Shown here: in pieces, positions 13,559 through 44,390 of the stretch
Layout: every line of letters starts with the position of its first letter
Numbering within the stretch: the stretch's first letter is position 1
Assembly (NCBI RefSeq): GCF_000372725.1
Contig: NW_005201259.1
Coordinates: 353,949 to 401,166 of the forward strand
From: Emiliania huxleyi CCMP1516
Taxonomy: Eukaryota
Direction: 5' to 3'
Length of the DNA: 47,218 bases
Notes under the pieces: model-generated
Seen by the model: only the letters and a program-made list of their open reading frames with translations
Told to the model about the DNA's origin: nothing
Databases searched by the model: none
Position numbers and translations under genes: made by a program

Positions 13559-14085
13559 CTAGGATTGAGAGCAGCCTCGCTCTCAATCCTAGAAGTCGAA
13601 GGATTGTGAGCAGCACTCCTCGCAATCGTAGCATCTCTGTGCGATTGTGAGCACCCACGCTCGCAATCCTACATCTTCTAGGACTAAGAGCAGCTCCGCT
13701 CACAAGGTGACTGGTGACGCCTACGACTACTACCAGCGCGCTCACAATCCGAGCAAACTCTAGGGTTGCGAGCAGCTTGGCTCACATGAATCCTGGCAAC
13801 ATGCCTCCGATTGCGAGCAGAAGCGCTCGCAATCCTATAACTTTCGCCGATTGCGAGCGACACCGCCCATAGTCCTACGACTTCTAGGATTTGCGAGCGG
13901 GTCCCCTCGCAATCGGTGCGATCACTGTTTGGATTGTGATGAGACCCTCCCGGCGCGCTCACTCACAAGCGCTCGCGGCTGGAGCGATTGGGAGCGCCCT
14001 CCTTGTGCGCCTGCTAGCCAACTAGCTATACTAGCAGTCCTTGGATCTTTGGTACGATTGTGAGCGCAGCCGCTCATAGTCCTAC
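13559..14085. repeat. Array of about 12 palindromic units, period ~40-42 bp (GATTGYGAGC-N6-GCTCRCAATC)
   Basis: For example ctaggattgagagc-agcctc-gctctcaatcctag (13559-13592, perfect 14-bp stem) and gattgcgagc-agaagc-gctcgcaatc (~13809-13834). Confidence 0.9.
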
Positions 14086-14202: not shown

Positions 14203-16050
14203 TGCCGCCGCCGCCGCCGCCGCTGCCGTCGTCCCCGCCATTGTCGCCGTCGTCGCCGCCGTCGTCGCCGCCACCACCATCGCCGTCGTCCATCTCATCG
14301 GCTCGGCCGCCCTGCGAGGTGGGAGACGAGCTAGGCCCCGCGCTCCCAGGCTGCGAGCCCGCCGCCCCACCCTTCCCAGAGGTCGGCCTGAGGCGACGGA
14401 TGCCTAGCCCGCCCTCTGAGGCGGTGATCCTGACGATGGCAGCGCAGTGGTTGTCATGCTGCAGGAACAAATGGAGCACGTACTGCGGCTGACTCGACTC
14501 TGTCGGCCAGATGAACTGCGGCATGCAGCGCGCGCCCTCCCGAGTGATAGAGTCGACGACAATCGGCGTGTGCCAAAGAGGTCGGCCACGCCAAGCAGGA
14601 ACCCGTCACACCCGTATGCGCCGCCTCGAACGCCAGCGAGGAAAGCCGCGAGATCAGTGTCGGCGGCTAGGGCCCGAGACCTGTGCACCGACAGCAGCAG
14701 CTGCTCCACTGTGTCGAGGGTCCGTGCGTCGACGGTATCGTGTGGCCGGCGGACGACTCGGCGCAGCACCTCGGGCATGGCCAGGTGGCGCGCCACGGCG
14801 AGGCGCAGCTTGCCACTCGCGAGCTTGGCGTCCCAGGAGGCGCCGAGGGTTAGCAGCCCGTGCGCAGCCAGCAGGGCCTCGGGCAGCAGTCTGCGCAGCT
14901 CCCAGGCGCACGCCGCGACCACACAGTCACCGGACGAGTCTAGGTCGACCGCCTCCCAGTGGCAGTCCTCGCACCCAATAGGCGGGAAGTCAGCACGCTG
15001 GGAAGTAGCGCGCGCGAGCATCGGGAAGCGGCCGGGGTCGATCCCGCCTGGCAGGCGCTCTGATGCAGGCGCGGTCGCAAAACGGACGCCGGCGGCGTCG
15101 AGCAGGGCCGTCGTGTGCATGAGGTCCCTGACGGCGTCCATGTTCCACAACCCGCCCGAGCTCGTCGCACCGCCCACGCCGCCCGCCACGCCGCCCTCGC
15201 CGCCTCCGCCGCCCTCCGCGGTGACGGCGCTGCCACCCGAGGTGTCGGCCGCGGTGTCGACGGGCATCTCGTCCTCGTCGTCGTCGCGCTTTCGGCGGCG
15301 ACTCTCCCGCGCTGCGGGCGGCTGGCACGGCGCCCTCTCGCGTTGTGGGCAGGCCTCTGGCTGCGAGGGCGATGGCGAGGCAGCCGCGCCGCTCGGCTCC
15401 GACGGCGATGCGACCGCCTCCGAATCGGGCGGGGTCGCCTTCGAGACGGGCGAGGTCGCCTCCTCGGGCGGGGGCGCACGGGGCGCGCAGCTTGGCTCGC
15501 GGGAGGACGCAGTCTCCTCTCCCCGCGCCGAGCGCGACCTCGCCGGCTGAGATCGTGATCGTCGCCGAGGCTCGCCCCCGCGACCGCCCGTCACCGCGGC
15601 GCTGGGCGTCTGCCTTCGCCGCCGCCGCCGCCGCCGCCGCCGCCGTCGCTGCCGCCGCCGCCTTCGCCGCCGCCGCCTCTTTCCGCACCCTCGCCGCCCC
15701 TGCCTTGGCAGCCTTATCGGCGATCCTTTGGCTAGACCGCCCAATCTCTCGCGATGGCGCGTCCGACTTAGGCTGGCTCCGGCGCGCACTGCGTTGAGCG
15801 CCGCCGGCCCTGAAGTGGAAGAGCGAGCAGAGGGAGGAGGAGGCGTCGCTAGCGTGGTGGGCGCCGGCGGGTCGTCTCTCTTGGTCGAGCCGCGCCCGCT
15901 CGCGACGCTCCGCCTCGAGGCTCTCCTTAAGCCTCTGGCGCGCCACGCGCTGTTTCTCTTGCACTTCGCCGACGGCCGACGCCAGCCGCTTGGCTTCCTC
16001 CAGCTCCTCAAGCTAATGAGCAGGTCCGAATGACGCCTAATGAGTTTCAT
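13922..16050 (-). pseudogene. Coiled-coil + OTU-like cysteine protease gene with frameshifts
   Basis: VDLDSSGDCVVAACAWEL (Cys loop), KLRLAVARHL, GAYGCDGFLLGVADLFG. After removing 2 nt at ~14570 it continues TPIVVDS..VLHLFLQHDNHCAAIV (His loop). A further frame switch lies near 15580. Confidence 0.7.
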
Positions 16051-16842
16051 CAGGCGCCTCGACGTCAGACGGCAGTTTTGGCACTGATTAGATTCGTTAA
16101 CTAAGCCCCGCTAATTAGTTCATCAGGCGCCTCCACGTCGGACGACAGTTTCGGCGATGAGATCATCGTCACCGTCATCGCCACCGGGTTTGAGCCCCCG
16201 GAGCGGGGAGGAGGAGGAGGAGGAGGAGGAGGAGGAGGAGGGCGGAGCGAGGCGGCGCCGCAGCAGCCAGTCGACTTGTTTCAGTTCCGGCCGCCGCGGC
16301 GGTGAGGGAGAGGGAGAGAGGGGCGGGGTGGGCGGGGTGGGCGGGTAAGGTGGCGCAGGAGAAGCTGACTTTGGGTTTTCTTGTTCGTTAGGGGGCACGA
16401 GAGCAGCGGGGACTACGACGCGTACCTCTCTCGGAGGCTCAACACGCGGGGGCCGGATGCTACATTCTTCTTCTTCTTCTTCTGAGTGGTGAATGATTCA
16501 TCCATAGGCGCGACGCGTTGGGGCGGCCGGGGGGACATGTGATGAACTGTTATTACCAGTTATTAATGATTCCTCGCAGGCTCGACACGTACTGCTCCCG
16601 GTTTAACAGTCTTCTTCATCTGAGTTATGAATGAGTACTCGCAGGCTCGACACGTACGGCTCCCGGATCGCCGCGCCGCCTCCGCCTCCGCTGCCCGGGT
16701 CCGATGCGGGGATATGAAGCAGCATAGCAGCAAGGCGGCCTGNNNNNNNNNNNNNNNNNNNNNNNNNNNNNNNNNNNNNNNNNNNNNNNNNNNNNNNNNN
16801 NNNNNNNNNNNNNNNNNNNNNNNNNNNNNNNNNNNNNNNNNN

Positions 16843-19902: not shown

Positions 19903-21394
19903 GAGAGAGAGATTTTTAGCAATACCAAACAAATCTAACACTCACACGTCATTTGGGGCCTGGAGCCCTGTTCACGCGCGCGCGAGACGTGCAGACAGGG
20001 TTGCCAGGTGAGAGCGAATGGCGCGGTTCACGCCTCGCACAACAGAGAGAGAGATGCGCTCTGCATGGTGGGACATAAAAGAGAGCGAGTACTTGGGCGA
20101 GTAGGCCGTGCGGTCGACGCTGCCGCGCGCGACTTTGCGCGCGAGGCGGCGCAGCTTGAGAACGGCGGTGGGCGAGAAGCCGCCGCCGAACGTCTCGTGG
20201 AGCAGCAGGTTGAAGTTGTTGCGCTTGACAAAGATCGCGTCGTGGTAGAAACCGCGATGCGCCTTGACGTAGCCGTGGCCGGTCTTGTGGGAGAAGGGTT
20301 GGCCGGGCTGCCCGCGCGCCTTGCAGCCCATGTTTAGGCGGCGGGCCTTCTCTTCGGTGTTACCAAAGGCGTAGGAGTGGCCAACGGAGGCGGGCGTGCC
20401 GCCACTCGAGGCGTTGCCAACGCCCGGCGAGGAGGTCTTGAGGAGGGGCGTCCAGAGCTTGATTTCATTCACTTCATCGCACCCTCCCGGGCCAGCGTGG
20501 GGTTCCGCGAGGTCGACCTTGTACCCCTCGTTGTACTGCCGGGTGAGCTCTAGTTTCTCCTTGTCACCGTGCACGACCGGCGCGTTGGCCGGGGCGCGCA
20601 TCGCGTCCGCCCAGGCGGCGAGGACGCCGTCGTGGGGCCGCCGGTGGTGGGCCTTGTTGTAAAGGTAGTCGCCGAAGAAATCGACTGGCATGCCCCGCTC
20701 GAGCGCGACCCGAAGGGTGGGAAGCGCCGCGGAGAGCCAAAGGCCGAGCTTTCGCTGGAGCTCGTCCTGGAGGGTGTCGGAGGAGAGGGCGGTGGCGTAC
20801 GTACCGTCGACACGGACATCGAAGGCCTTGCCGGCGAAAGGCGTTGAGGCGGAGACGAAGCGTGCGGCTTCGCGGTTGTTGACGGCGCTGTCTCCGAGGG
20901 ACGGGTTGTTCTTGACGTGCGCATCCCGCGCCTTGACGAGCTCCTGGTGCGCGTACCAGTCCTTGTGATTCTTGATGGCAGCGAGCGCCCGCGGCCGCGG
21001 GTACGTGGATTTGCAAGTGCCATTGAGAATCGCGTCGGTAGCTGGAAGGGACTCGGGCTCGGGGAGCGGGACGCTCTTGGGGTAGAACTCAGTCAGGTAG
21101 CCGCCGCGGACGGTGTAGTACTTGTTTTTGTCGCGGGCGGTGCGCTTCTCGCACACCTCCTTCCAGTCCGAGAGGGCGGACTCGTAGGTGGCGATAGCTG
21201 CGGCGATGGCGGGGTACTTGGATGCACCTCCCTCGTCGTGGGCGAAGTCGGGGTTGTGGGCGACGAGGGTGCGCCAGTTCTTGAGGAGCGACATGGAGAA
21301 GTCGCTGTCGGCTCGCGTGAAGGCGGTGTCGATGTTGCACCCGCCCATCTCGGTCGGCAGCTGTGCCTGGAGCCACGCGAGGTCGTTTGTGTTT
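19903..21394 (-). mobile_element. 5'-truncated CRE-like non-LTR retrotransposon (RT thumb + restriction-like endonuclease), (TC)5 tail, 8-bp TSD
   Basis: AWLQAQLPTEMGG (thumb), HRRPHDGV, KVDL..NEIK, TEEKARR, LLHETFGGG, RISLSVVRG (RLE motifs). gtcattta repeated at 19895-19902 and 21395-21402. ORF remnant open to the stop at 19972. Confidence 0.85.
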
Positions 21395-21507
21395 GTCATT
21401 TATGGATTGCGCTCGTACGCTCGAGGTACGAGGAGCGCAAGAGCGCGAAGCGATTTTTGGGCGGCAGGGCTGTTCCAGTTTATCTTGTGTTACGCGCGAG
21501 CCTGTGA

Positions 21508-21618: not shown

Positions 21619-21746
21619 GGGCAGAGTCCTGTGCTTTGCTCGTGTTCTTTTCTGTGCCGCGCCAGTCCGCGCCCTTCTCGTGCACGGAGCACTTGGAGCA
21701 CTCCGAGGCGAAAAAGAATTCTTTTTGCAGGGCGCCGGCTGAACTT

Positions 21747-24700
21747 ATGAGTCTGGTCTTCCTTCGGGTGTGGCTGCTCCTGGCGCCCGTCGCGGCCTTC
21801 TACTTGCCCGGTGTCGCCCCTCACGAGTACCTCGACAACGAAAAGGTTGAGATCAAGGCGCGCACCGCCGTCGCTCCGCGTCCGCACCACCACCGCCGCC
21901 ACCACACCGCACTGCAGCCTCGCGCCCGTTGCCGCAGCCGTACGCACACGCCGCACCAGCGCCGGCAACCCAACCGCGAGAGGCCGGCCGCGCGGGCAGT
22001 GCACCGCCCGCGCCGCCCGTGGCCGCACGCCGTGCCGCCGACCCGGCGCACACCCCTCCCTCGTGGGCCAGGTCAACAAACTCTCGTCGACAAAGACGCA
22101 GCTGCCGTACGACTACTACTCGTTGCCCTTCTGCCGCCCGGCCGAGGTGGTCAACAAGATGGAGAACCTGGGCGAGGTGCTCCACGGCTCCGTCATCAAG
22201 AACTCGGCGTACGACATATCGATGGGCAAGATCGAGTTCCGCGTGCTCTGCAAGCGGACTCTCGAGCCTGCAGAGGCGACGCTGCTGCACACGCGGATCC
22301 GGCAGGACTACCGCGTGCACATGATCATGGACAACCTGCCCGCCGCCACCAAGATGATCCGCGAGCTCCCCGACGGCCAGACGATTGTCATGTCCGCGCC
22401 CGCCCTCTGCCCACACACCTCCGCCGCCACCTCTCCACCACCCCCCGCCCACACACCTCCGCCTCCACCTCTCCACCACCCCTGGCTCCTCCGCAGGTAC
22501 GACCGCGGCTACCCCCTCGGCTTTGTCGGGTCTGCAGAGCGGCAGGGCTCCGTGCCGGGCGGCGCCTACCTGCACAACCACCTGCGGTTCGAGAGTAGCC
22601 GAGAGATCACCCGAGATCACCCGAGATCACCCGAGATCACCCGGGCGGCGCCTACCTGCACAATCACCTACCCACGCACTAGGTTCGTGCTCAAGTACCA
22701 CAAGGACGCGGCGTTCGACGGCGCGCGGATCGTCGGGTTCGAGGCGTGCAACTACTCCACCGCCACTCCTCCCACACCCGCCCCCAGTCTCCCACTACAC
22801 GCGGTCTCCCCCTCCTCCCGCGAGGGCCTCCCCCTCCTCCCGCGAGGGCGAGCCACTCTCAGTCGACCACACGCGAGGACACCCCCTCGGGCACATCTCG
22901 GGCACATCTCGGGCACATCTCGGGCACATCTCGGGCACATCTCGGGCACATGTCATGCAGGTCGAGCCCCTCTCCGTCAAGCACAAGTACAAGGGCGCCT
23001 GGTCCCGACGCCGCCGTCCTCTCCTCGCACCTCCTGCTTGCGCCCCTTCTCGGACCCTTCTCGGACCCCTTCCCCGTGTAGGTCTGACGACGCCTCCCAG
23101 CTCCAGCTCCTCACCCTGCCCGTCGGGCACGACTCGCCGCCGCTGCGAGCGGACAGTGAGGGGGGAGCAGCTCACTCTACGCACTGTGCACTCGCAATAG
23201 GCCCGACTTGCCGCCGCTGCGAGTGGACCCAAAGGGAAGCGCTGCGGAGCGAGAGGCGGCTTGCGCGTGCGGCGTGAGGCGACAGGGCCGGTGAGCTGAG
23301 GAGGGGCGAGATGGCGTGGATAGGTGGTGTACACGTACGACGTTAAGTGGGAGCCGTCGGACGTCAAGTGGGCGAGTCGCTGGGACCTGTACCTGTACAT
23401 GGGGGACGACCAGATCCACTGGTCCTCTCCCCCGCCCGCCCGCCGCTCCTGAGGAGGAGGAAGGGGGGTGGGTCATACCCTGGCTGCGACTAGGTTTCCC
23501 TCACCAGCTCTCGCTCCTACTCGAGAGTTGACCATCAGTGACGAAGAACTGACGACTCCTTAGGTTCTCAATCATCAACTCTCTCGCGATCGTCCTGCTG
23601 CTCACCGGCGCGTGATATGTCTCTCCCCATCTCTCCCCATCTCTCCCCATCTCTCCCCATCTCTCCCCATCTCTCCCCATCTCTGGCGCGGGGTGTGAGA
23701 TGCGCACGCCGGAGGGAGGGAAGGAGCCACGCGCCCGCTCTGAGCAGGCATCGTCGCCATGATCATGATGCGCACGCTGAGGAGGGACGTGTCGCGGCAC
23801 ACTCGCCACACACACAAGGGCGCCCCGCGCAGAGCCGTCAGTCCCTCACTCGCGGATCAGCCGTCGGCTAGGTACAACTCGCCCGAGGACAAGGACGACC
23901 TCGCCGAGGCGACGGGCCCATCGCCCGCCCCCCCGGTGGCTCAGTCCTCCGCTCACCGCCGGAGGAGGAGTCGCGTAGGAGTCTGGCTGGAAGCTGGTGC
24001 ACGCCGACGTCTTCCGGCCGCCGCAGCAGCCGACCCTCCTCTCCGCCTCCAGGACACGTCCACGACATGTCCGAGACATGTCCCGCAGGCCGCCGCAGCA
24101 GCCGATCCTCCTCTCCGCCTCTCTCGGCACCGGCATGCAGCTGCTCGCGAGGAGGACATTTCCTAGCCACTTCCTAGCCACTTCCTAGCCACTTCCTATG
24201 AACAGGCATGCAGCTCCTCGCGATGGCGGTCGTCTCCATCGGCTGCGCGATGCTCGGGTTCCTCTCCCCCGCCAACCGAGGCGAGACATAGCCGAGACGG
24301 CACCCTCCCCCCGCCGACCCTAGGCGTTCTCAACCGCCACGCTCACCGCCACGCCGCTACCAGCCTGCCCTCTGCCCTCTGCCGCACCCTCTGCCGCACC
24401 TCCTCCTCCCTTCCCTCGCCCTCCTTGAAGCCCAGCATAGCCCATCCTCGTCACCAGGCGGCCTGCTCCCCTACTCTTCTCTTTGTCTTCTCTTGTTACC
24501 ACCCCTCCTCCTCATCAGGCGGCCTGCTCACCGCCACGCTGCTCACTTTCATGCTGATGGGCGTGCCGGCGGGCTACTGCGCCTCCCACACCTACAAGGC
24601 ACTCAAGGGCACCGAGTGGAAGCTGGTCACCGTGCTCACCGCCACCCTCTACCCCGGCGCCATCGCCGCCACCCTGTTCGTGCTCAACTTCTTCATCTGG

Positions 24701-25811
24701 GGCCAGCACTCCTCGGGCGCCTGACGTGTCCAGGAAGTGTCTAGGAAGTGTCTAGGAAGTGTCTCATAGGCCAGCAGTCCTCGGGCGCCATCCCGTTCGG
24801 CACGATGGTGGTGCTGCTCCTCATGTGGTTCGGCGTGTCGGTGCACCCCTCCCCTAGCCGAGATGCGCAGAGATGCGCAGAGATGCGCAGAGATGCGCAG
24901 AGATGCGCAGAGATGCGCAGAGATGCGCAGAGAGAAGCCGAGAAGTGGCTCGGCGTGTCGCTCTCCTCCTCGCCGGCGCCCCCCCTCGCGCGGGCCGTTG
25001 CCCGAGCCTTCTCGGAGCCTCGCCAGGTGCCACTCGTGTTCGCCGGCGCCTTCTTCGGCTTCAAGGCCCAAAACCAACGGGCCCGCCCGCGCCGCGCACT
25101 TCTTCTTCTCTGACTCGCGCGTTTCGTGGCTTAGGCGAAGCTCAAGGACCCGCCCTGCCGCACCAACGAGATCCCGCGCCAGGTGCCCGAGCAGGCGTGG
25201 TACATGGTCGGAGCCTTCAACGTGCTCATGGGCGGCATCCTCCCCTTCGGCGCCATCTTCATCGAGCTCTTCTTCATCATGACCTCCGTCTGGCTGCAGG
25301 TTTCAGATGTGCAGCCCGGAGCCCCGCCCAGAGCGCGGCCGAGGCGGCTGAGCTGGGGCGGTTGCGCCGCGACTGACCGCGCCCGTGTCCCGCGCGCAGC
25401 GCTTCTACTACGTGTTCGGCTTCCTCGCGCTCGTGCTGCTCATCCTCATCATCACCTGCGCCGAGATCTCGATCGTGCTCTGCTACTTCCAGCTCTGCAA
25501 CGAGGACTACAACTGGTGGTGGCGCGCCTTCCTCACCTCTGGCTCCTCGGGGCTGTACCTGTTTGGCTACTCGATCATGTACTTTCACTCGCAGCTCGAG
25601 ATCGACGGGTTCGTGCCCACCCTGATGTACTTCACGTACATGGCGGTCTTCTCGACCCTCTTCTTCCTCGTCACGGGTGCGGTCGGCGCCTGCTCGCGCC
25701 AACACTGGTTCATTAGTAGTCATTGTGAGCTACGAATGAGTAGGCACGATCGGCTTCTACTCGTGCCAAAAGTTTGTCTGGGCGATCTACGCCGCCATCA
25801 AGGTGGACTGA
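21747..25811 (+). CDS. TM9SF4: Nonaspanin / TM9SF (EMP70) family, TM9SF2/4-like, with many introns
   Basis: Signal peptide then [120 protein letters not shown]. Confidence 0.95.
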
Positions 25812-32696: not shown

Positions 32697-34725
32697 ATGA
32701 TCACGCACAGTACGCGCTCGCGGCGCTGGCCCATCCCTCTGACGCTGGTAGCTACCACGCTCTTTGCGGCGCTGACACTCGTTGGTCGGCGGCCCAGCAG
32801 CGAGGGCATCGACTCTCTCGCGACTGCCTTTGACGACAGTACAATGGCAGCAACACTGACCGCCGAGCAGAAGCTCGTCGACTTTCAAGTGTCCGCGGAC
32901 GAGACGGAGGAGGCTGTCAACTCCCAGATTGGCACCGCCGGCGCGCAAGCGGGCTCCCTCTCCTTGCCGGCGTCGTCAGAGGTGCTTCCCGCGCCGCTCG
33001 AGCACGTGAGGCAGTCGGTGGCAGACGGCGTGGGCGAGGCGAGCACGCGGTTCGGTGGCGAGGTGGGAAAGGCGGGCCGGTTTGCGAGCTCGCGCGTCAC
33101 CGAGTCGCTGCTCGGCCTCGCGCAGGCCGGCGGCCTCGGCGATCTGAAGCCGGGCGGGTTGTCGGTCGAGTGGGAGGAGCTGGCCATCAGTGGGGTGGGA
33201 GGCGCGCGGAAGAAAGTGGCCTGTAGAGCCCTGGTCCGACAGTCTCATACTCTCCGACAGCACACGCCCGACAGTTCGGCAGCGCGGTCTGGCCTCCTAG
33301 GCGCGCAGTCTCATACTCTCCGACAGCACACGCCCGACAGTTCGGCAGCGCGGTCTGGCCTCCTAGGCGCGCAGTCTCATACTCTCCGACAGCACACACC
33401 CGACAGTCCGGCAGCGCGGTCTGGCCTCCTAGGCGCGCGGCTAAAGGCGGTGGTTGCGTATCCCAAGGCTGGGGCGGCGGAGGCGACACGCCGCTTCCCA
33501 GTCGTCGTCCTCTGCAACTCGTGGGTGATGAACTGGTGGGAGTACGCCGTCAAGCAGCAGGAGTGGGCGGCGGCGGGGTACGTCGTGCTGATGTACGTCG
33601 CGCGGGGCTGGTGGGAGTCGGAGGGGGAAGTGACCGCCGCGGGCCCGCTCGAGGCCCCGCCGAGAGATAGCCGAGACGCAGCCGAGAGAAGGGGGAGATA
33701 CACGGGAGGTGAGCGACGCGGGCGCCGTGGGTCGAGGTGGACGACGCTCGCCGCGTGCTCGACACGGTCGAGACGCGCGCCGCCGACTGGCACGCCGACC
33801 CGTCCCGCATCGCCACGGCGGGCGTCTCGTATGGCGGAGGCCTTGCTGTCCTCACGGCCGCCGCCGACAGCCGCGTGACGGCGGCGGTCTCTCTCTCGGG
33901 GTGGGGCAACATCAACCGCGCCCTCGCGGGGCAGGGCGCGCCGCAGCCCCGTGCCCTTCCTAGACCACTCCTAGACCTCTCCTAGACCCTTCCTAGCCCT
34001 GTGCCCTGGCCAGCAAGCCGCCCTCCCCGCGAACTTGCTCGGAACCTTCTCGGAAGCTTCTCGGACGCCTCTTCGTAGGCGCGCCGAACCTGTTCTGGTA
34101 CGAGGTGTGGACAGCTCGAAGCAGCTCCCGGCTAGACCTCGGCTGTGTCTCGGCTGTGTCTCGGCTGTGTCTCGGCTGTATCTCGGCTGTATCTCGGCTG
34201 TATCTCGGCTGTATCTGGCAGGTGCTCAAGCTGAGTGGCTCTCCATGGGTGGGCATGGGCCGGCTCTCCAACTCCGTCTCGCCACACTTCCGCGCCATCC
34301 TCGCCGGCACGCCGGGGGAGAGGGGCGGGGGGGGGGGCGCGGTGCCGCACTCTATCTCGGCCACCTCTCGGCCGCCTCTCGGCCTTAGGCAACCGCTCCG
34401 AGGAGGTTGTGGGGTGGTGCCGCACTCGCTCGCCAGAAGCGCACCTGCAGGCGGCTGCTCGCGGGGGGCGGGCGGCTGCGAGGACGTGCCGTGGACGCGC
34501 CTCGGACGTGTCCTGGACGTGTCCCCGCAGGACTTGTGCGGCGGCGGTCGCGCCACGCCCGTTCTCCTGTCCAACAACGCGGAGGACCGGCTCTTCGCGC
34601 CCGACGCGGCGCTGCTCTACCGGCAGGCGCTGCATGGCGCCGGCTGCCGCGTCGAGACGATGATCCACGAGGGGATCCACGCCATGGCAGAGCTGCCAGG
34701 CTCTCTCTCTCCCCCTCTCTCTCCC

Positions 34726-34805
<80 letters not shown>

Positions 34806-36861
34806 CCTCTCTCCCTCTCCCCTCTCACCCTTCATCTCTTTTCTCTGCCGCCAGCCATGCTTGGTTTCTTGAGTCATGTCCAGTCATGTCCTCACCCGTC
34901 ATCTCACTGGAACCTGCCAGGCATGTTGGGCTTCTCCGACGCCGTCGCAACATCGTCCCCGCTCTGGAGCCGTGTCCTGGCTTTCCTCGACGCCAACCTC
35001 AAGCCGGGCGCCGCGCCGCCGCCGCCGCCGCCACCCGCCCTCTCGTTCCAGCTGCGCCAGCCAGAGGCGTCTGTCTTCAAGAACTACGTGCCGGCCGGAT
35101 CTAGATGCGGCACATCCTCTGCTGGCCACCCTCTCACCTCGAGACCTCGAGACGAGGTAGTGTGCTCGGCTGCGCCCCCACCACGTTGCAGCCGTGTGCG
35201 TAGGGGGGGGGGGGGTATTCCACACAAGGCGCGGGCACGCCGCTTCACCCCCGCCCTCCCCCCTACCCCCCTACCCCCCCTACCCCCTCTCACGCCACGT
35301 CCAGGTGCCAGTCTACCTCGACTTCGACTCGTGGCCGTCGCCGCGCGTGCAGCCGTCAAGCTACAGGCTCCGCGGCGACGCGCTGGCGCCGCCGCAGGCT
35401 AGAGGTTGGGCGGCGCTGCTCTGCCTCCGCCGCCGACTAGAACGTTCTCATCCGTTCCATCCGCTCGTCAGATGTCGCAGCGCCGTCTCCGCCGCCGAAG
35501 GCCGAGGAGTGCACGCGGCGGCTGGCGTATGGCCCCGACACGGGCTTCAGCGGCGGGGCGCCGCTCCACACCGCTCTGGGGCGGGGGGTGGCTCGAGAAG
35601 TGTCTCGGAACGTGCCGCCTCGGCTCTCTCCCCCTCAGGTGCCGCTGCTGAGCCCGTTTGTCTCTGCCGCCGCCGGGGTGCAGATCAAGTCGTACCGGCG
35701 CGCCATCAACTCTAGCTCGGCGGCGCTCTTTGTCGCGCCGCCGCAGGAGCACCACCCTTCCCCTCTCCCGCTCGTAGCCTCGCCCCTAGCCCCCCCCCCC
35801 ACCCCCCCCACCCACCCACCCACCCACCACACACACACACACACACCCCACCACCACCACCACCACCACCACCACCACCACCACCACCACCACCACCACC
35901 ACTAGGCGGCGCCTCTGCGGGTGTGCGGCATCCCAAACGCCACCTTCCACGCCTCCTCCAGCATGGACCGCTTCCAGCTCGCGGCGCGCGTCTTCTCGAT
36001 GGCGCCAAACGGCGAGACGAGCCGAGACGAGCCGAGACGAGCCGAGCGGAGCCGAGAGGAGCCGAGCGAGCGGGGGTGTGCCGGCAGGCGAGCTCGAGCT
36101 CCTCTCATCCGGCTAATGGATCATGAGTAGTGAAGAAAGACTCCTCCACAGGCGAGCTCGAGCTCCTCTCATCCGGCTAATGGATCATGAGTAGTGAAGA
36201 AAGACTCCTCCACAGGCGAGCTCGAGCTCCTCTCATCCGGCTAATGGATCATGAGTAGTGAAGAGTGACTCCTCCACAGGCGAGCTCGAGCTCCTCTCAT
36301 CCGGCTAATGGATCATGAGTAGTGAAGAAAGACTCATCCACAGGCGAGCTCGAGCTCCTCTCATCCGGCTAATGGATCATGAGTAGTGAAGAGAGACTCC
36401 TCCACAGGCGAGCTCGAGCTCCTCTCCTTCGGCGCGCGCGACGTGTGGCACCGAGGGCCGGACCCGCCGTGCTTGCGCCCGGACGGCATCACGGATGAGA
36501 GAGGAACACCCCGGGGACTTGTGGGACCTCCCCGTAGGTACCTGCGCCCGGACGACGTCAGGGACAACTGGGACGTGCCGGCCGGTGGCGCAGGGGAGGT
36601 GGTGGTGCGGATGGCGGCCCTCTGCACCGACGTGCCCGCCGACCGCACGAGCCTGCTTCCGTGCAGGACCTCTCTTAGACATTTCCTGGAACATTCCTGT
36701 AGGTGCCCGCCGGCAACGCCGTCGCCCTCGGCCTCTCCTTGCACGACCCGACCCGCGCCGCCGCAAACAGCGACGTGGCATTGCGCGTGGACGTCGGCTG
36801 CTGCGGCGCGAGCGCGCTGTGGCTGCCCGTCGTGGGGGCGAGCGGAGGAGCGGCACTTTGA
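32697..36861 (+). CDS. CocE/NonD (peptidase S15) alpha/beta hydrolase with N-terminal anchor, many introns
   Basis: FPVVV..SW, AAAGYVV..Y.ARGWWESEG, nucleophile GVSYGG, NAEDRLF (Asp), EGIHA (His). C-terminal jelly-roll-like exons (LRVCGIP, VPAGNAVALGL) end at TGA 36859-36861. Confidence 0.85.
33240..33437 (+). repeat. 66-bp tandem repeat x3 spanning a splice acceptor
   Basis: Units start at 33240, 33306, 33372; each ends ctag|gcgcg. Confidence 0.95.
36085..36426 (+). repeat. 64-bp tandem repeat x5 plus a partial copy, each carrying acceptor + exon start
   Basis: Units start at 36085, 36149, 36213, 36277, 36341, 36405 (cag|gcgagctcgagctcctctc). Confidence 0.95.
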
Positions 36862-37509
36862 GGATTCCATGAGTATGTTGCGCGGCGGCGCGGGCCGCCG
36901 GCGCGCCCCCGCCCCTCCAACTTGGTCTTGGAACTTGTTCGGGGCCGCAGAGAGAACTTTAGTGGTAGAGCGCGCATCTTCAATCTAGAGACTAGAGAGA
37001 CAAGGAGGCCATTTTACACGTGGACGTCATTGCTCTGACACACACAATCCGAAATTCGGAGGCGACCGCAAACACGGCATCTGAAACGGATGCGCGTTCG
37101 TGCATGGTGAAGGCATTCTCTGACCTTTTGTTGTAACTCGAGCGGTGTAAGGCTAAAGGGTCGAAAAAGCCAGACACTACTGGTGGTCCAGAACGGAGCG
37201 CAGCTGCGCACTGTCCACTCACTCCGATGGAGCCCGATATGTATGTGTGAGACCTGAGAGCAGCGTGCAGCTGGAGCGCGAGCGCGCACAATCGAGCGCC
37301 GCCCATGCACTGCTGTCTCGGTCCTCTACGTCGGCTCGTCATCCATGGTACACAATCCTCTCCCGCGCAAGAGCAGGGAGATGCGGTTCTCGTGCGGCAC
37401 GAGCCGGAAACGCAGTCCGCGCCGCGGCTCGTCGAGAGGCATGGTCGAAAATTGGCGGAACATTGGCCGAGATGAAAAACTGGCCGAGATGAAACATTGG
37501 CGCCGAAGG

Positions 37510-40290
37510 TCACAGCGGCGGCGTGGCCTGGGCGGGCTCCTCCTGCTTGACTGCGGAGTGGGTGGTTGCCGTCGGGCGGGCCGGTCCGCGCTCCACCGCC
37601 TCCACCCGCCGCCGCAGGACGGAGGCCTGCAGCCCGCTTGGCTGGAGCGGCAGGGCGGCGAGGAAGGCCTGCGAGGGGCGTTGGGAGGGGGAGGAGAAGG
37701 CGGGTGGACGCGGGGGCGGGGGCGGGGGCGGGGCGTATCATGGGAGTTGAGTGCCCTCGAGCCGTCCGGCTGCCCCGACTCGGCAAATCTCGGCAAATCT
37801 CGGCAAATCTCGGCTCATCTCGGCTCATCTCGCCTCGAGCTGCCCCGACTCGGCAAGGAGCGGCACCGACATTCCACGCCGGAGACACCTGCGGCGCGTC
37901 GAAGGTTGGGCGGCGTTACGTCGGCGTCGGGCTGGGCGGCGGGCGCACCAGGACTAGCCACACCGACGCGCTGCATGCGGGGTGGGCGGGCGGCGAGACG
38001 TGCGGGAGTGGGGGCGGAGGGTGCGCGTGCGCGGGGGGGGCGCTCTTGACCGCGGGGGCCAATCTCTCTCGGACAATCTCGGACAATCTCGGGTCATCTC
38101 ACCAGCTGAGCGCAGCGCTCTTCACCTCGTCGCTCATGTCGCTCGTCAGCGTCGCAAGCCCCTCCACCACCGCCCCCTCGGGAAACCGGCGAGCCCCCCG
38201 CTCCACGCCCACCGGCGGCGAGGCCGCCGGGAGAGGCACCGCCGCCCCTGACGCCGCCCCTGCGGCCGCCGCCTGCCCCGCCGCCGCCACCGGCCGGAAT
38301 GGCGCCGCCTCCACCCTGCTGAACGCGGTGGTCTCGGCCGCCCCTCGCAAACCCGCCGAGCGTGGTTGAGCAATCGGCTGCTGCGCCGGCAGCGGGCTTG
38401 CAATCTGGACCGGGACGGGCTGCCGGCCGGCCGAGTGCAGCTGCTGCACGTGCTGTACGGCCTGCACTTGCTGCGCGCTGTACAGCTGCTGCTGCATCTG
38501 CGGCGGCATCTGTGGCAACATCTGCATCTGCGGCTGCATCTGCGGCTGCATCTGCGGCTGCTGCGGGGGCGACTGCTGCGGCGGCATCACCACCATCGTG
38601 GCGGGATGCGGCGCGGCGATCTGCATCGCGGCCATCGACTGGTGCGGCGCCTAATCTCGGGTGATCTCGGGTGGCCTCGGGTGATCTCGGCGTCGCCGCC
38701 CTCGGCTGGTGCGGCGCCTGCTGCAGCCGCAGCCGCCCGACGTGCAGCAGCTGAGCCTGGGGCAAGGGCGCACATGACAAGGCTGGGAGGACAAGGCTGG
38801 GAGGACAAGGCTGGGAGGACAAGGCTGGGAGGACAAGGCTGGGAGGAGACGAGGGCGGGAGAGGGACAGAGAGGCTGCGAGGCAAGCGTCGGCGCGAGAG
38901 CGGGGGGCGCGTGGGCCGGCGTGTCCAGAGGCTGTGAGGCAAACCGCCGCCAGAGAGATAAAACGCCGCCCCGTAATCAGAGAGTGTGCGGGCGGGGTTC
39001 TGGCGTCAGAAGAGAGTGTGCGGGCAGGGAGCAAGGCGCCTGGCCACACGGTGCGTAGACTTGCGGGTGGCCGGCCGCGCCTGAGGAGCGGAGGCGAGCG
39101 AGCTGAGGGCGGGGCTGCGGTCCCGTGGAGGGCGTTCGCAGCTGAATGCGACTGCGACGCTCGCAAGGACGGGGGCGTTTGTTTCTGCATCTGGAATGGC
39201 GGGCCATAGTGCGGCGCAAGCTCCCAAGGCTGGCCGGGCGGGAGGGCGTGGCCGGTCGGCAGCGCGGCGTGCTGCGGCGCGAGGAGCACGCCGCCGCCGT
39301 GCGACGCGTAGGCGCACCTAGACGAAGCTTCCGAGAAGGTTCGGGCGGACGGCTCTGCGAGGCGGCCACCGAGTGTGCAGAGGGGCGCACGGCGCTGCCG
39401 CGGGCGCGAAGGGGCGGAAGGCGGGCTGTGGCGGCCGCAGCGGCACCAGCTGGGGCGGCGCGTACTCGTGCTCCGGAGACGAAGCCAGCGAGCTGCTGCA
39501 GCTGTTGTGCCGGGCGCCACACAGCGCGAGGGCAGGCAGCGCCGCGCTGGGCTGAGGGGGGGGAGGGGCGCCGAGCGAGGTGGGCATTCGCTTGGCGTCG
39601 CCAGCCGCGTCCGCGAGCGCCGCCAGCGGGTCCCCGGCAGAGCTGCAAGCAGGCCTCGCTCGCTTGCCGGGCTGAACGCGCCGCGGGTCGGAGGAGGAGG
39701 AGGAGGCGGCCGCCGCCGACTGGCCCGCGCTTCCGCTCTGCGGGGCGGCAGAGGGCCCGAGGGGGAGGGGCGCCGAGCTGGCCTGCGCTGGCGCGGATTT
39801 GCGCGCCTTGGACGGGCCAGCCCGCTCCTTTGGCTCGGCCGACGCGCGCCGCTGCAGAAAGGTGATGCCCGACTCAGCGAGCCGGCGGAGCGCGCGCACA
39901 AAGGAGGCGCGCTCGGCACTCGCGTGGGGGCACTCGCGGCAGTCGGTGTACTTTTGAGCGAGCTGATCGCACGCGGGCCGGTCGGGGATCTGGTCCAGGA
40001 TCCGCCGGACCAGCGGTTCTGGCGGCAGATCATAAGTCTTGTCCTCGACCGCCTTGCTCGTGTGGTTGAAGAGCTGGGCAAAGTCCTTCATCGCGGCCTT
40101 GATGGGGCAGCTCTCCGGCCAGTGCATCGCGAGCCTGAGAGGGCCGCGCAAAGGGTCGCCGCGGCGGCTCCGCAAGCGGTGAGAGGGAGGGCCCGCCCCC
40201 CCGGCAGGTCGGCTATCCAGCGCGGGCCTCGGAGGATGGTCTCGTAAAGCACGTCTTCGAACTTCTGTCCTTTCATTAGCGAAGTAGGTC
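37510..40290 (-). CDS. Hypothetical multi-exon protein: helical N-domain, Pro/Gln-rich middle, small helical (SAM-like?) C-domain; 5' end uncertain
   Basis: LAMHWPESCPIKAAMKDFAQLF.., MQPQMQPQ repeats, and spliced tail KSAALSWCLRRGMSVPLLAESGQLE|AFLAALPLQPSGLQASVLRRRV..TPPL*. Confidence 0.55.
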
Positions 40291-41026: not shown

Positions 41027-42449
41027 ATGAATCCGGAGGACACCCTACCGCCCGACGTCACCTTCAGGCCGGTCACTGCCTACCCGGCCTTGACGGCTTG
41101 GCCGGACCGAGCCACGCTCTACGCCCTGACGAGCGCCAACACCGTCGCCACCGAGCCGCGCCGGCCGACGGTGATCCACATGTACGACAGCGGGTGAGGC
41201 GGGTGCCGCCCGTGCGCCGAGGCCATGGCTGCCTGGGCGCACGGCGGCAGCTACGGCGACCGCGTCCGCTTCCTCATGCTCTGCGTGGAGACGGGCGCGA
41301 GTGGCCTCCGCACGGCCAAGGCGTTTGGCAAGGAGTTTCGGCTGCCAGCGACGGTGGTGAACGGGTACATTGAGAGCAAGTCGGAGCTGCCGCGCTTCGG
41401 CCAGCTCGGCTGCGGCGGCTTTGTGGTCCTCGGTCGCCACGGAGAGTTTGTCGCCGCGCGAACCGTGCCTTCGTATCTGGACCGAGGCAGCTACCGCACC
41501 AGAGCTCCGCCCGAGCCGGCATCGGATCAGGCGAGTCTGGTGGCTGGATGTAGGCGCCCTGGCCTTCGCCGCGGTCGAGGCCCTCCTGGCCGGCCTCGGC
41601 GTCCAGAGGTCCACTCCCGCCACCGGCGGCGGCGGCGGCGGCAGTGAGGGCAAAGGCGGCGCCGCCGCTGCGCCGCTGCTGCTGGCCGCGGTCGCCCACG
41701 CGCAGATGGATCGCGAGCACGAGGGCCTCGCCGACGCGGCGGACGCCCTCCGGCAGCAGCGCAGCCTGGCGAGCCTACGCCGCCTCAGGCGCGGCGGAGA
41801 TGCGGCCGAGATGCGGCGAGATGCGGGGAGATGTGGCAGCCTGGCGAGCTCGAGATGCAGTTGAGGTGCAGCGGAGATGCGGCGAGGTGCGGCGAGGTGC
41901 GGGGACTGTGCCGAGCGCCTGTTCACAGCGTCGCTTCGCTCTCTCCCTCGCTGCTTCGCAGGCGGGAGTGGGCGGAGCACTGTGCGCACGAAGAGGCGCT
42001 CTTTGAGCAGCACGACTTTGCAGGCCACGGGAGCAGATCTCGGGTGAGCTCGGGTGAGCTCGGGCGATCTCGGCTGATCTCGCCGTGTCTCGCAGGCCAC
42101 CGCTCGAGAGGCGATCTCGCCGGCACCGCGTCGCACGTGAAGCACCACCGCGCGCTCCTGGCGAGCATGGACGCCGCCGTGCAGAGCTGCGAGGAGGGCG
42201 CCGAGTGCTCGCGGGGAGGCTGCTGTGCGCCCGGACTGGTCAGCGACGAATCGGTGCGTTCCGAGATCACCCGAGATGAGCCGAGATGAGCCGCGTTGCG
42301 GCGCACCTCTCCTTGCAGAGAGGGTGCTCGAGCACAGCGGGGGGCGGCGCCTCTTCAGCGGTGTGTGTGCACAGGTGCGCCGCATCCTCGGGGAGCTGCA
42401 GCAGCACGGCGACGTGTACGATGCCGCCTACGTAGGCAGGCTCGGCTAG
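41027..42449 (+). CDS. Selenoprotein: thioredoxin-like domain (UGGC) fused to hemerythrin domain; exons 41027-41486, 41554-41788, 41962-42023, 42096-42253, 42375-42449 (329 aa)
   Basis: In-frame TGA at 41195-41197 in VIHMYDSG-U-GGCRPC. Hemerythrin ligands MDREH, HCAHEE, HVKHH, HGDVYD. Exons total 990 nt in frame. SECIS in the 3'UTR. Confidence 0.88.
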
Positions 42450-42695: not shown

Positions 42696-44390
42696 GTGGC
42701 CTCGCCCGGCCGGAGCACAGCTGGCGGACGAACGGCGAGCCGCTGGCGCGACGAGCGGCGGCGCAACGAGCCATGGCTGCGAGGGAGAGACGAGCCGCGA
42801 GGGAGAGACGAGCCGCGAGGGCGCAACGAGCGTGAGCTGCCAAGACGACGGGATCGTCCGCCGCTGTCGCCTCGGTGGGCGCCTCCGCCGCCTCCGGGCG
42901 GTCCGTCGCCGCTGCCACCGCCGCGAAGGACAGGTGGTCCGCCGCAGTCGCCCTCACGCCGGCCAAATCCAGCAGTGCGCAGCGAGCCGCCCTCATCTGG
43001 CCGCTCTGCCGCCGGTGGTCAGCTCAACGCCAAGCAACTCACCGGCCTCATCTCTCGCATGCCCGCGACGCCGACGAGCTGCTCGGGCTCTTTGCTGCCC
43101 ACAGCACGAGCTTGGACCACATCCACGCTGCGAACCTGTGGAACAAACTGGGCCAGAAGTGCATCGAGCGGTGGCACGAGGAGCAGCTAGTGCGGCTGGC
43201 GAAGCGCACGCTCGACCTCGTCTCGTCGTCGTGCGAAGCACGTAACCTGGCGAACATCGCCCACGGCGTGGCAAAGTGCGGTCTGCAAACGAGGGCGGTG
43301 CACGCGCTGTACGCGGCGGTGGCGGAGGCGGCGGTGGGCGGCGGGCTGGCGGGCTTCAACCCTCAGGAGCTGGCTAACACTGTGTGGGCGTATGCGACGG
43401 CGGGCGTGGCTGCGGACGCGCTATTCGCGGCAGTGGCGGAGGTGGCGGTGCGGAGCAGGCTGGCTGGATTCAACCCTCAGAACCTGGCCAACACGGTGTG
43501 GGCGTTTGCAAAGACAGGCGTGGCTGCAGAGGCGCTGTACGCGGCGGTGGCGGAGGCGGTGGTGAGCGGCGGGATGGCCGGCTTCAACGCTCAAAACCTG
43601 GCCAACACGGTGTGGGCGTATGCGACAGCGGGCGTTGCTGCGGTCGCGCTGTACGCGGCGGTGGCGGAGGCGGCGGTGCGCAGCTGGCTGGCCGGCTTTA
43701 CGCCTCAGAACCTAGCCAACACTGTGTGGGCGTATGCGACAGCGGGCGTGGCTGCGGACGCGCTGTACGCGGCGGTGGCGGAGGCGGCGGTGGGCGGCGG
43801 GCTGGCTGGCTTTACGCCTCAGAACCTGGCCAACACGGTGTGGGCGTATGCGACAGCGGGCGTGGCTGCGGACGCGCTGTACGCGGCGGTGGCGGAGGCG
43901 GCGGTGGGCGGCGGGCTGGCTGGCTTTACGCCTCAGAACCTGGCCAACACGGTGTGGGCGTACGCGACGGCAGACCATTATCACCAGGCATTGCTTGCCG
44001 ACTGCTCGCGTGTGATCAGCGACTCGCTCGCGCGGGATCCGTCGCGGTGGAGCATCAAATCCCGCCATCAGCTGCACCAATGGCAGCTCTGGCTCTCCCT
44101 GAAGCAAGGGGCAGACGGGCAGCATCTTCTACCCGACTCCCAGCGCCAGCTTTGCTGCGACGCTATGCACGACACGCAAGTGACGATCTCAGGCTACCTT
44201 GCAGGTTGCAGCGCTCGGTTGCAGCTGCTCTCGCCGCCATCAAGCACGGCTTCGAGAACGAGTATCTCGAGCCGCTCACCGGCTACTCGCTCGACTTGGC
44301 GTGCCCTCCTCACGCATCGCGATCGAGGTGGATGGCCCGTCTCACTTCCTGCGGCCTGACGGCCAAGGTGTGCGCGCGCCCAACGCGCTG
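42696..44390 (+). pseudogene. OPR/FASTK-like helical-repeat + RAP-domain gene, frameshifted and 3'-truncated
   Basis: Six ~40-aa repeats FxPQNLANTVWAYATAGV; RAP motif GYSLD..RIAIEVDGPSHF. Frameshifts near 43053, 44195, 44300; RAP C-terminal half missing. Confidence 0.8.

Follow-up and report, generated by a model that had tools for sequence, protein, structure and literature searches.

Echo introns in a TM9SF gene of Emiliania huxleyi: exon-start copies, repeat fillers and a probable repair-based route of intron gain

We analyzed a 47,218-nucleotide (nt) stretch of the Emiliania huxleyi CCMP1516 genome (contig NW_005201259.1, forward-strand positions 353,949 to 401,166; here called the window), concentrating on the introns of a TM9SF/nonaspanin gene. 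Several of these introns begin with a copy, or echo, of the first bases of the exon that follows, and continue with a filler that ends in AG. An original prediction, made from the bare sequence, had picked out three of them and proposed that duplication plus filler synthesis makes introns. The gene and its echo introns are listed below; introns are named in the text by their first position, and scores are those of the echo alignment defined further on.

21747..25811, plus strand: TM9SF/nonaspanin gene (Pfam PF02990), 20 exons and 19 introns (12 GC and 7 GT donors), 636 amino acids, MMETSP protein P0005
24017..24088, plus strand: echo intron, codon 330 phase 2, GC-AG, 72 nt (a multiple of three, no in-frame stop), 33-nt echo (24017-24049; 32/33 matches to exon 24089+) and 11-mer filler ending CCCGCAG
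24133..24205, plus strand: echo intron, codon 345 phase 1, GC-AG, 73 nt, 18-nt echo (17/18) and (TTCCTAGCCAC)n filler
24702..24769, plus strand: echo intron, codon 431 phase 1, GC-AG, 68 nt, 20-nt echo (19/20) and (GTGTCTAGGAA)n filler
23127..23200, plus strand: echo intron that the original prediction had overlooked, 28-nt echo with 3 mismatches, non-repeat filler
23002..23081, plus strand: decayed echo intron, score 12, 11-mer filler
23797..23871, plus strand: decayed echo intron, score 13; its site, codon 305 phase 2, is occupied in 3 of 19 other lineage groups as well
25066..25134, plus strand: decayed echo intron, score 9
25677..25743, plus strand: decayed echo intron, score 12 (20/28 by eye, mainly transitions)

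The three echoes named at the outset are present as described, and the 19-intron model encodes a protein identical to the MMETSP transcript protein P0005 at 636 of 636 residues; thus, the echo copies are spliced out. Where the copies differ, P0005 reads I336 and Q433, as the downstream copies encode, and not the T and H of the echoes, which identifies the echo as the intronic copy. With P0005 as query, a purpose-written spliced aligner recovered 19 of 19 introns, and with a Prymnesium protein at 79% identity it recovered 18 of 19. The modelled cut is the sole same-length GY..AG placement within 40 nt for introns 24133 and 24702; intron 24017 has one alternative, 36 nt upstream and outside the repeat. 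Database proteins identical over exon 2 carry Emiliania huxleyi as their name. Public gene model P0004 takes the echo of intron 23127 for exon, and P0006 and P0002 are apparent transcript chimeras between paralogues.

Genomic contigs carry the same structures. Contigs of DNA runs X1, X2 and X4 (three studies) contain the donor, echo and filler start of intron 24702, plus its filler end and acceptor, and the exon, echo and 28 nt of filler of intron 24017 are present in contigs of runs X2 and X4. Among the contigs listed for 21700-25200, none holds a whole echo intron. The echo introns of the window are not an assembly artefact, as contigs of three studies carry echo and filler halves. In RNA run X11 we found no splice junction for the TM9SF gene, the only contigs placed being those of paralogues and repeats. 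Joints in the TM9SF paralogue contigs of 21700-25200 were alike in RNA and DNA runs, which suggests intron-poor paralogues in the same genome.

A second gene, X-Pro dipeptidyl-peptidase-like (gene B), provided 14 further introns defined by transcript proteins. A minus-strand gene at 37500-40127 contains a candidate echo intron; no full-length transcript protein was found for it, so it was excluded from the counts, as were the remaining genes of the window.

32697..36858: gene B, 14 introns by transcript proteins P0136 (736/738) and P0140
36469..36537, plus strand: echo intron of gene B, 69 nt, score 17, in frame and stopless
36632..36702, plus strand: echo intron of gene B, 71 nt, 10 exact bases then decay, score 13, 11-mer filler, supported by P0136/P0140
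38651..38717, minus strand: probable echo intron, 22/25 echo and 10-mer filler

The two gene B introns and the minus-strand candidate had also been foreseen, the latter with the same three mismatches in 25 nt. Five of the 10 database proteins that cover intron 36469 (13 examined) retain it and five splice it, which would fit a weak or young intron. Two shorter proposals fared less well. An intron does begin at 33202 in P0136/P0140, but its echo of 8 exact bases (p=0.04) is unconvincing alone, and so is the 5-nt echo at 42024.

To quantify echoes we used 33 introns from these two transcript-checked E. huxleyi genes, 19 from TM9SF and 14 from gene B. An echo was called where the anchored alignment of an intron's 5' end against its own downstream exon start scored at least 9. 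By this measure 11 of 33 introns have echoes, compared with 2.2% of 1,056 mismatched pairs, so the enrichment over a shuffled-type control anticipated by the original prediction is borne out for both genes together. The three named introns score 31, 19 and 18, against a null maximum of 13. With these three left out, the TM9SF gene still has a summed score of 107 (null mean 45, maximum 74 in 20,000 derangements) and holds five more echoes (23002, 23127, 23797, 25066 and 25677) that form a decay series. All 11 echo introns are 67-80 nt long; echoes are present in 11 of 17 introns of at most 83 nt and in 0 of 16 longer ones (p=9e-5). The original prediction had put its clearest cases at about 67-73 nt with 10-11-mer filler, but such a filler is not universal: those of 23127, 25677 and 25066 are no such arrays. 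An annotation-free scan placed 33 of 46 spaced repeats in GY..AG register (24 expected) and 18 at the repeat edge (9.5 expected), and was only modestly informative, its low-complexity filter having removed the 24017 pair.

The donor of an echo intron is the first dinucleotide of its echo, and this relationship may extend beyond visible echoes. Downstream exons start with GT or GC in 29 of 33 cases, or 29 of 31 given a first G (background 0.55, p=3e-6). Donor and exon-start dinucleotides agree more often than expected (12 GC/GC, 9 GT/GT, 6 GC/GT, 1 GT/GC; p=0.006). Together these suggest that most introns here, with or without a visible echo, would have begun as an exon-start copy, with GT-to-GC changes later. 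The excess of GC donors, which had been attributed to copying of the exon start, is explained only in part: donors do track exon starts, but 6 of the 18 GC donors before a GT or GC exon start precede GT. According to PMC4028052, 61-65% of donors in E. huxleyi are GC and intron retention is high, both of which that paper ascribes to GC content. In gene B, transcript proteins also define an intron at 35747-35905 with a GA donor and a long (CCA)n tract before its AG.

Many fillers are 10-11-mer arrays, and in E. huxleyi these belong to genome-wide, high-copy families. Filler motifs, hand-picked from the arrays, reach 15.8 per kb in introns, against 2.2 per kb in exons and 2.3 per kb over the first 21.7 kb of the window. 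Filler bins have a depth hundreds to roughly a thousand times that of single-copy sequence, and the filler and acceptor at 24048-24090 are common to 53-59 contigs per DNA run. The fillers at 24133 (codon 345) and 24702 (codon 431) are reverse complements of each other. We considered telomerase as the source of the E. huxleyi fillers and rejected it, because the fillers of the window are 10-11-mers and the E. huxleyi telomere is TTAGGG (bioRxiv 10.1101/2024.05.26.595999), the repeat also given for haptophytes (PMC3622300). Searches of viral and prokaryote contigs gave no match to the filler patterns, and searches of viral contigs gave none to the TM9SF protein. Non-genic DNA at 13559-14085 contains dispersed degenerate repeats of about 40 nt (GATTGYGAGC..GCTCGCAATCCTA) with internal palindromy.

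For comparison with other lineages, we mapped introns in the best 80 of 89 TM9SF loci from a metagenome scan and retained 26 loci that had introns or long contigs, which fall into 19 lineage groups. Left out were intronless contigs of short length, which are probable transcripts, as well as duplicates, distant matches and the gene of the window itself. Splicing at these loci is predicted from protein homology alone, and some of the loci with a single intron could derive from partly spliced RNA. In a quick tree the loci fall into three paralogue clades together with named haptophyte proteins, and just five of the groups are orthologues of the E. huxleyi gene. Other lineages have 0-6 introns, compared with 19 in E. 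huxleyi. Four long genomic contigs (L004, L036, L042 and L043; 7-99 kb) carry a fully intronless TM9SF gene.

The sites of the three named introns are empty elsewhere: 330, 345 and 431 are unoccupied in 18/18, 18/18 and 16/16 spanning lineage groups (4/4 orthologue groups each). Sites 208, 223, 468 and 615 are likewise occupied in no other lineage group, which makes seven echo sites without a counterpart in the groups compared. The absence of these introns from the other lineages agrees with the original prediction; site 305 is occupied in 3 of 19 other groups. Apparent sharing of echo sites, based on open reading frames ending near 332, 348 and 430-433, was rejected, as these proved to be other positions or phases, or a frameshift.

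Echoes also occur in other lineages, in 7 of 54 distinct introns (5 events; null 1.1%). In L031, a perfect 18-nt echo is followed by (CCCTAA)n and AG, and in L018 and L040 a 17-nt echo with a GA donor is followed by telomere-like filler. The telomere-repeat filler points to telomerase in L031. The GA-donor introns of L018 (1581-1689) and L040 (1474-1631) are near-identical and lie at site 318 of paralogues with 77% coding identity; since the L040 echo fits the L018 exon better, intron transfer between paralogues is suggested. Two further introns, L017 1713-1828 and L040 1746-1847, consist wholly of head-to-head (TTAGGG)n(CCCTAA)n and have no echo. They have GTTAG/GTAAG donors and CTAAC branch-like motifs before AG.

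One echo intron appears to be segregating. In six contigs of a single gene, with 99.6-99.9% coding identity, site 195 holds an intron in L070, L071 and L072 and is precisely empty in L061, L063 and L064. The intron is 92 nt long: its first 14 nt are a perfect echo, and the rest is an 11-mer filler that closes with AG. Site 195 is also occupied in E. huxleyi and in L065. Since none of the five remaining groups in that paralogue clade has the intron, gain is the more parsimonious reading. Presence/absence polymorphism, which the original prediction had proposed to look for, was seen in a relative; among the joints listed for the introns of the window, no empty allele appeared.

Echo-like units are also found on splice sites that already existed. 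In the window, such structures lie within the two transcript-checked genes.

24441..24529, plus strand: duplication of 28 nt across the acceptor of intron 24281-24518, carrying a 33-nt filler; intron growth at an existing site
22555..22669, plus strand: mirror type, a 29-nt copy of the upstream exon end after 10-mer filler, inside intron 22587-22682
33654..33736, plus strand: mirror-image intron of gene B, with a donor from filler and a 3' end that is a decayed upstream exon-end copy supplying AG (3' echo score 15)
36012..36407, plus strand: intron of gene B with five tandem 64-nt units of exon start, filler and AG (at 36089) on an older acceptor

Transcripts use the last AG of intron 36012-36407, and gene B has three further units, of 66 nt, at 33240. 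The L061-L072 lineage varies in the same manner at site 256, where intron alleles are 92, 161, 162 and 246 nt long. There, L063 has in addition a perfect 39-nt exon copy plus filler from the same intron, at the old acceptor. A perfect 37-nt exon copy plus filler lies exactly at the old acceptor in L064 (778-841), and a perfect 24-nt donor-spanning unit is present in L064 and L061 and absent in L072. The alternative raised by the original prediction, ongoing conversion between junction sequences, therefore also operates; the echo at site 305, which fits the E. huxleyi exon only, speaks for it as well.

Several other structures in the window resemble these units. A 37-nt acceptor-straddling duplication at 16046-16190 (spacing 73) precedes a C-terminal fragment reading ...DDSFGDEIIVTVIATGF, which we take to be FtsZ-like, and a 44-nt duplication around AG lies in the 3' region of the same fragment at 16558-16666 (spacing 65). 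Candidate units of duplication plus 10-mer filler occur at 37769-37856, 38067-38092 and 41761-41902 on the minus strand and at 42024-42097 on the plus strand, in host genes of unconfirmed structure. Elsewhere, the plus strand at 43302-43968 encodes a 114-nt coding repeat of 5.9 copies followed by a RAP-like C-terminus, presumably an OPR/RAP-type protein, and the minus strand at 20020-21400 holds an intronless reading frame that, in our estimation, resembles a decayed retroelement end.

We consider it fairly probable that duplication with templated filler during DNA repair makes introns, and that repeat-mediated exchange then grows, refreshes and removes them. The route is likely still active and apparently transposon-free. 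For its chemistry, enzymes, selection and direction of change, we infer the following course. Repair of a staggered break, or a (double) template switch in replication, would duplicate 14-39 nt of exon, and between the two copies a filler of 35-55 bases would be written, with a lineage-specific repeat as its template. A duplicated stretch that starts with GT or GC could become a donor, and a filler ending in AG, with a total of about 65-80 nt, could allow exact removal so that the insertion survives. At an existing splice site the same insertion would lengthen the intron. Later, the echo would decay and the filler expand, while exchange between echo and exon, which form direct repeats, could multiply units, renew the echo or bring about precise loss of the intron. 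That duplication plus filler can yield introns, the core of the original prediction, is favored by the empty named sites, the site-195 polymorphism, the decay series and donors that track exon starts.

Several observations weigh against this reading. Units of exon copy plus filler are also seen at acceptors and donors that were already there, where they multiply and vary between alleles. Site 305 is a parallel gain or an overwritten old intron, because its position is shared while its echo scores 13 against the exon of E. huxleyi (reached in 0 of 2,000 shuffles) and only 3-4 against orthologue exons. An echo thus does not prove a new intron. Nor do echoes form a clean clock of intron age, since they can be refreshed, although a decay series like that predicted is present. 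The empty site-195 allele could be a precise deletion between repeats. No intronless E. huxleyi allele is among the joints listed, a weak absence that covers 21700-25200 only. The comparison set is without a close outgroup such as Gephyrocapsa or Isochrysis, and the E. huxleyi test is limited to two genes. Finally, many units sit exactly at junctions, and no unit with this filler was seen in the mostly non-genic first 21.7 kb, except near the FtsZ fragment. Untargeted breaks would not lead one to expect this pattern, which may point to template switches that involve exons and intron repeats close by, or to a step linked to RNA.

The strongest rival, which we still regard as unlikely, is that echoes are written largely into pre-existing introns. 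Here an old acceptor would receive a unit and the original 5' part would then be lost, or a break would be partly repaired from spliced messenger RNA or its complementary DNA. In the latter case the first exon and echo together would be a spliced junction, with the old 3' half left behind as "filler." The perfect units at the old acceptors of L063 site 256 and L064 778-841, the five units at 36089, the lineage-specific echo at shared site 305, the clustering of events at splice sites and fillers that match the same or the next intron are all consistent with overwriting. Against it stand seven echo sites occupied in no other lineage, fillers in both orientations, and site 195, where echo and empty alleles coexist with no echo-less allele among 6. 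Overwriting alone would also not yield GT or GC starts in 29 of 33 exons.

The other explanations are considerably weaker. The variable duplication length (14-39 nt), tandem-repeat inserts and filler-plus-AG ends common to many loci, such as the CCCTCATCAG ends in L064 and L070, could reflect target-primed reverse transcription. The fillers would then be tails of heavily 5'-truncated non-long-terminal-repeat retroelements, or reverse-transcribed intron tails, and the echo a target-site duplication. We think this improbable: no element body or open reading frame adjoins any filler, some fillers match neighbouring introns or are non-repetitive, and the head-to-head telomere introns of L017 and L040, which have no duplication, fit break healing better. 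Slightly less credible still is a pure tandem duplication of 65-80 nt of exon (the Rogers model) with its 3' part later overwritten by repeats. Upstream-exon sequence or an upstream AG is kept in 33654, 22587, 38717 and L070 site 195, and summed 3' similarity is 69 against a null of 48 (p=0.004), a result driven by one intron. However, the exons upstream of the named introns end CCG, ACCG and TGGG, with no AG, the 3' halves are dissimilar (scores 1, 6 and 1), and the segregating allele is already a perfect echo plus filler. As for an assembly or annotation artefact, the lack of one contig spanning a whole echo intron counts for very little beside the diagnostic mismatches, the P0005 identity, the DNA contigs of three studies and the same design in unrelated assemblies, and we give it almost no credence.

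Among described systems, the pattern resembles break-repair intron gain in Daphnia pulex (PMC4202315; review PMC3443670) and borrows from the Rogers model, introners and telomeric insertions, while departing from what defines Rogers duplications and introners. The resemblance to insertion at a repaired break is one of sequence signature. In these sources, new Daphnia introns likewise lie between direct repeats of neighbouring exon bases, have presence/absence alleles and frequent parallel gains at one site (48%, PMC4202315), and are lengthened by later internal duplications. The Daphnia repeats are 4-12 bp (PMC4202315), whereas those here are 14-39 nt and supply the donor. Moreover, the insert here is a genome-wide repeat family or telomere repeat, one third of the introns in the two tested genes keep a trace, and long echoes drive unit amplification and refresh. 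As outlined in PMC3443670, the Rogers model shares a duplicated exon whose duplicate gives a splice site and precise excision. In its classical form a duplicated AGGT provides both sites and the whole intron is duplicate sequence, whereas here filler makes up most of the intron and usually provides the AG; the named introns, lacking an upstream AG and 3' similarity, are not such duplicates.

Introners (PMC9860276, PMC12130899), known from aquatic algae including Chrysochromulina, also take a splice site from a target duplication and share sequence among introns. The fixed-length target duplication and the end-to-end similarity to both splice boundaries that mark introners were not found: duplications here are 14-39 nt, 5' halves are locus-specific exon copies and only fillers are shared. 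The 2022 introner pipeline removed low-complexity families, and the word Emiliania appears in the main text of neither paper (PMC9860276, PMC12130899). Interstitial telomeric insertions at breaks, with a target duplication at 3 of 66 loci or in head-to-head form (PMC7215372), parallel the introns of L031, L018, L017 and L040, the only ones with telomere-repeat inserts. None of those insertions lies in an exon, whereas here they apparently make whole introns (predicted splicing). Pervasive interstitial telomere arrays are described in Calcidiscus, the accessible text mentioning no tie to introns (PMC13518057). As a general observation, PMC11782384 describes direct repeats of 4-30 bp close to splice sites, with no Emiliania in the accessible text. 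In the literature covered we found no account of introns with exon echoes or telomeric fillers for haptophytes; outside that coverage lie the E. huxleyi genome paper, supplements and most subscription papers, which may hold one. Read et al. (2013) and Huff et al. (2016) reportedly make statements on intron repeats and target duplications.

Outside introner bursts, the majority of intron gains have, to our knowledge, not been traced to a source. The footprint described here is long, frequent and segregating, and existing genomes would thus allow the rate, the sequence rules and selection on new introns to be measured. The findings also suggest that whole introns can be made of telomere repeats; they warn that dating by shared intron positions or echo decay may mislead, and that gene predictors can mistake echoes for exons. 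For E. huxleyi, they offer a concrete candidate source for its GC donors (61-65%) and high intron retention. More tentatively, as a possibility we do not yet favor, haptophytes may make most of their introns by an active, transposase-free repair process. This would combine a 15-40 nt exon duplication with a lineage-specific repeat, either a telomerase product or 10-11-mers, and echoes would evolve in concert with exons. If so, one process would underlie the birth, amplification, refresh and precise loss of introns and could be watched segregating in populations, and it would explain why E. huxleyi is so rich in introns and why most of its donors are GC.

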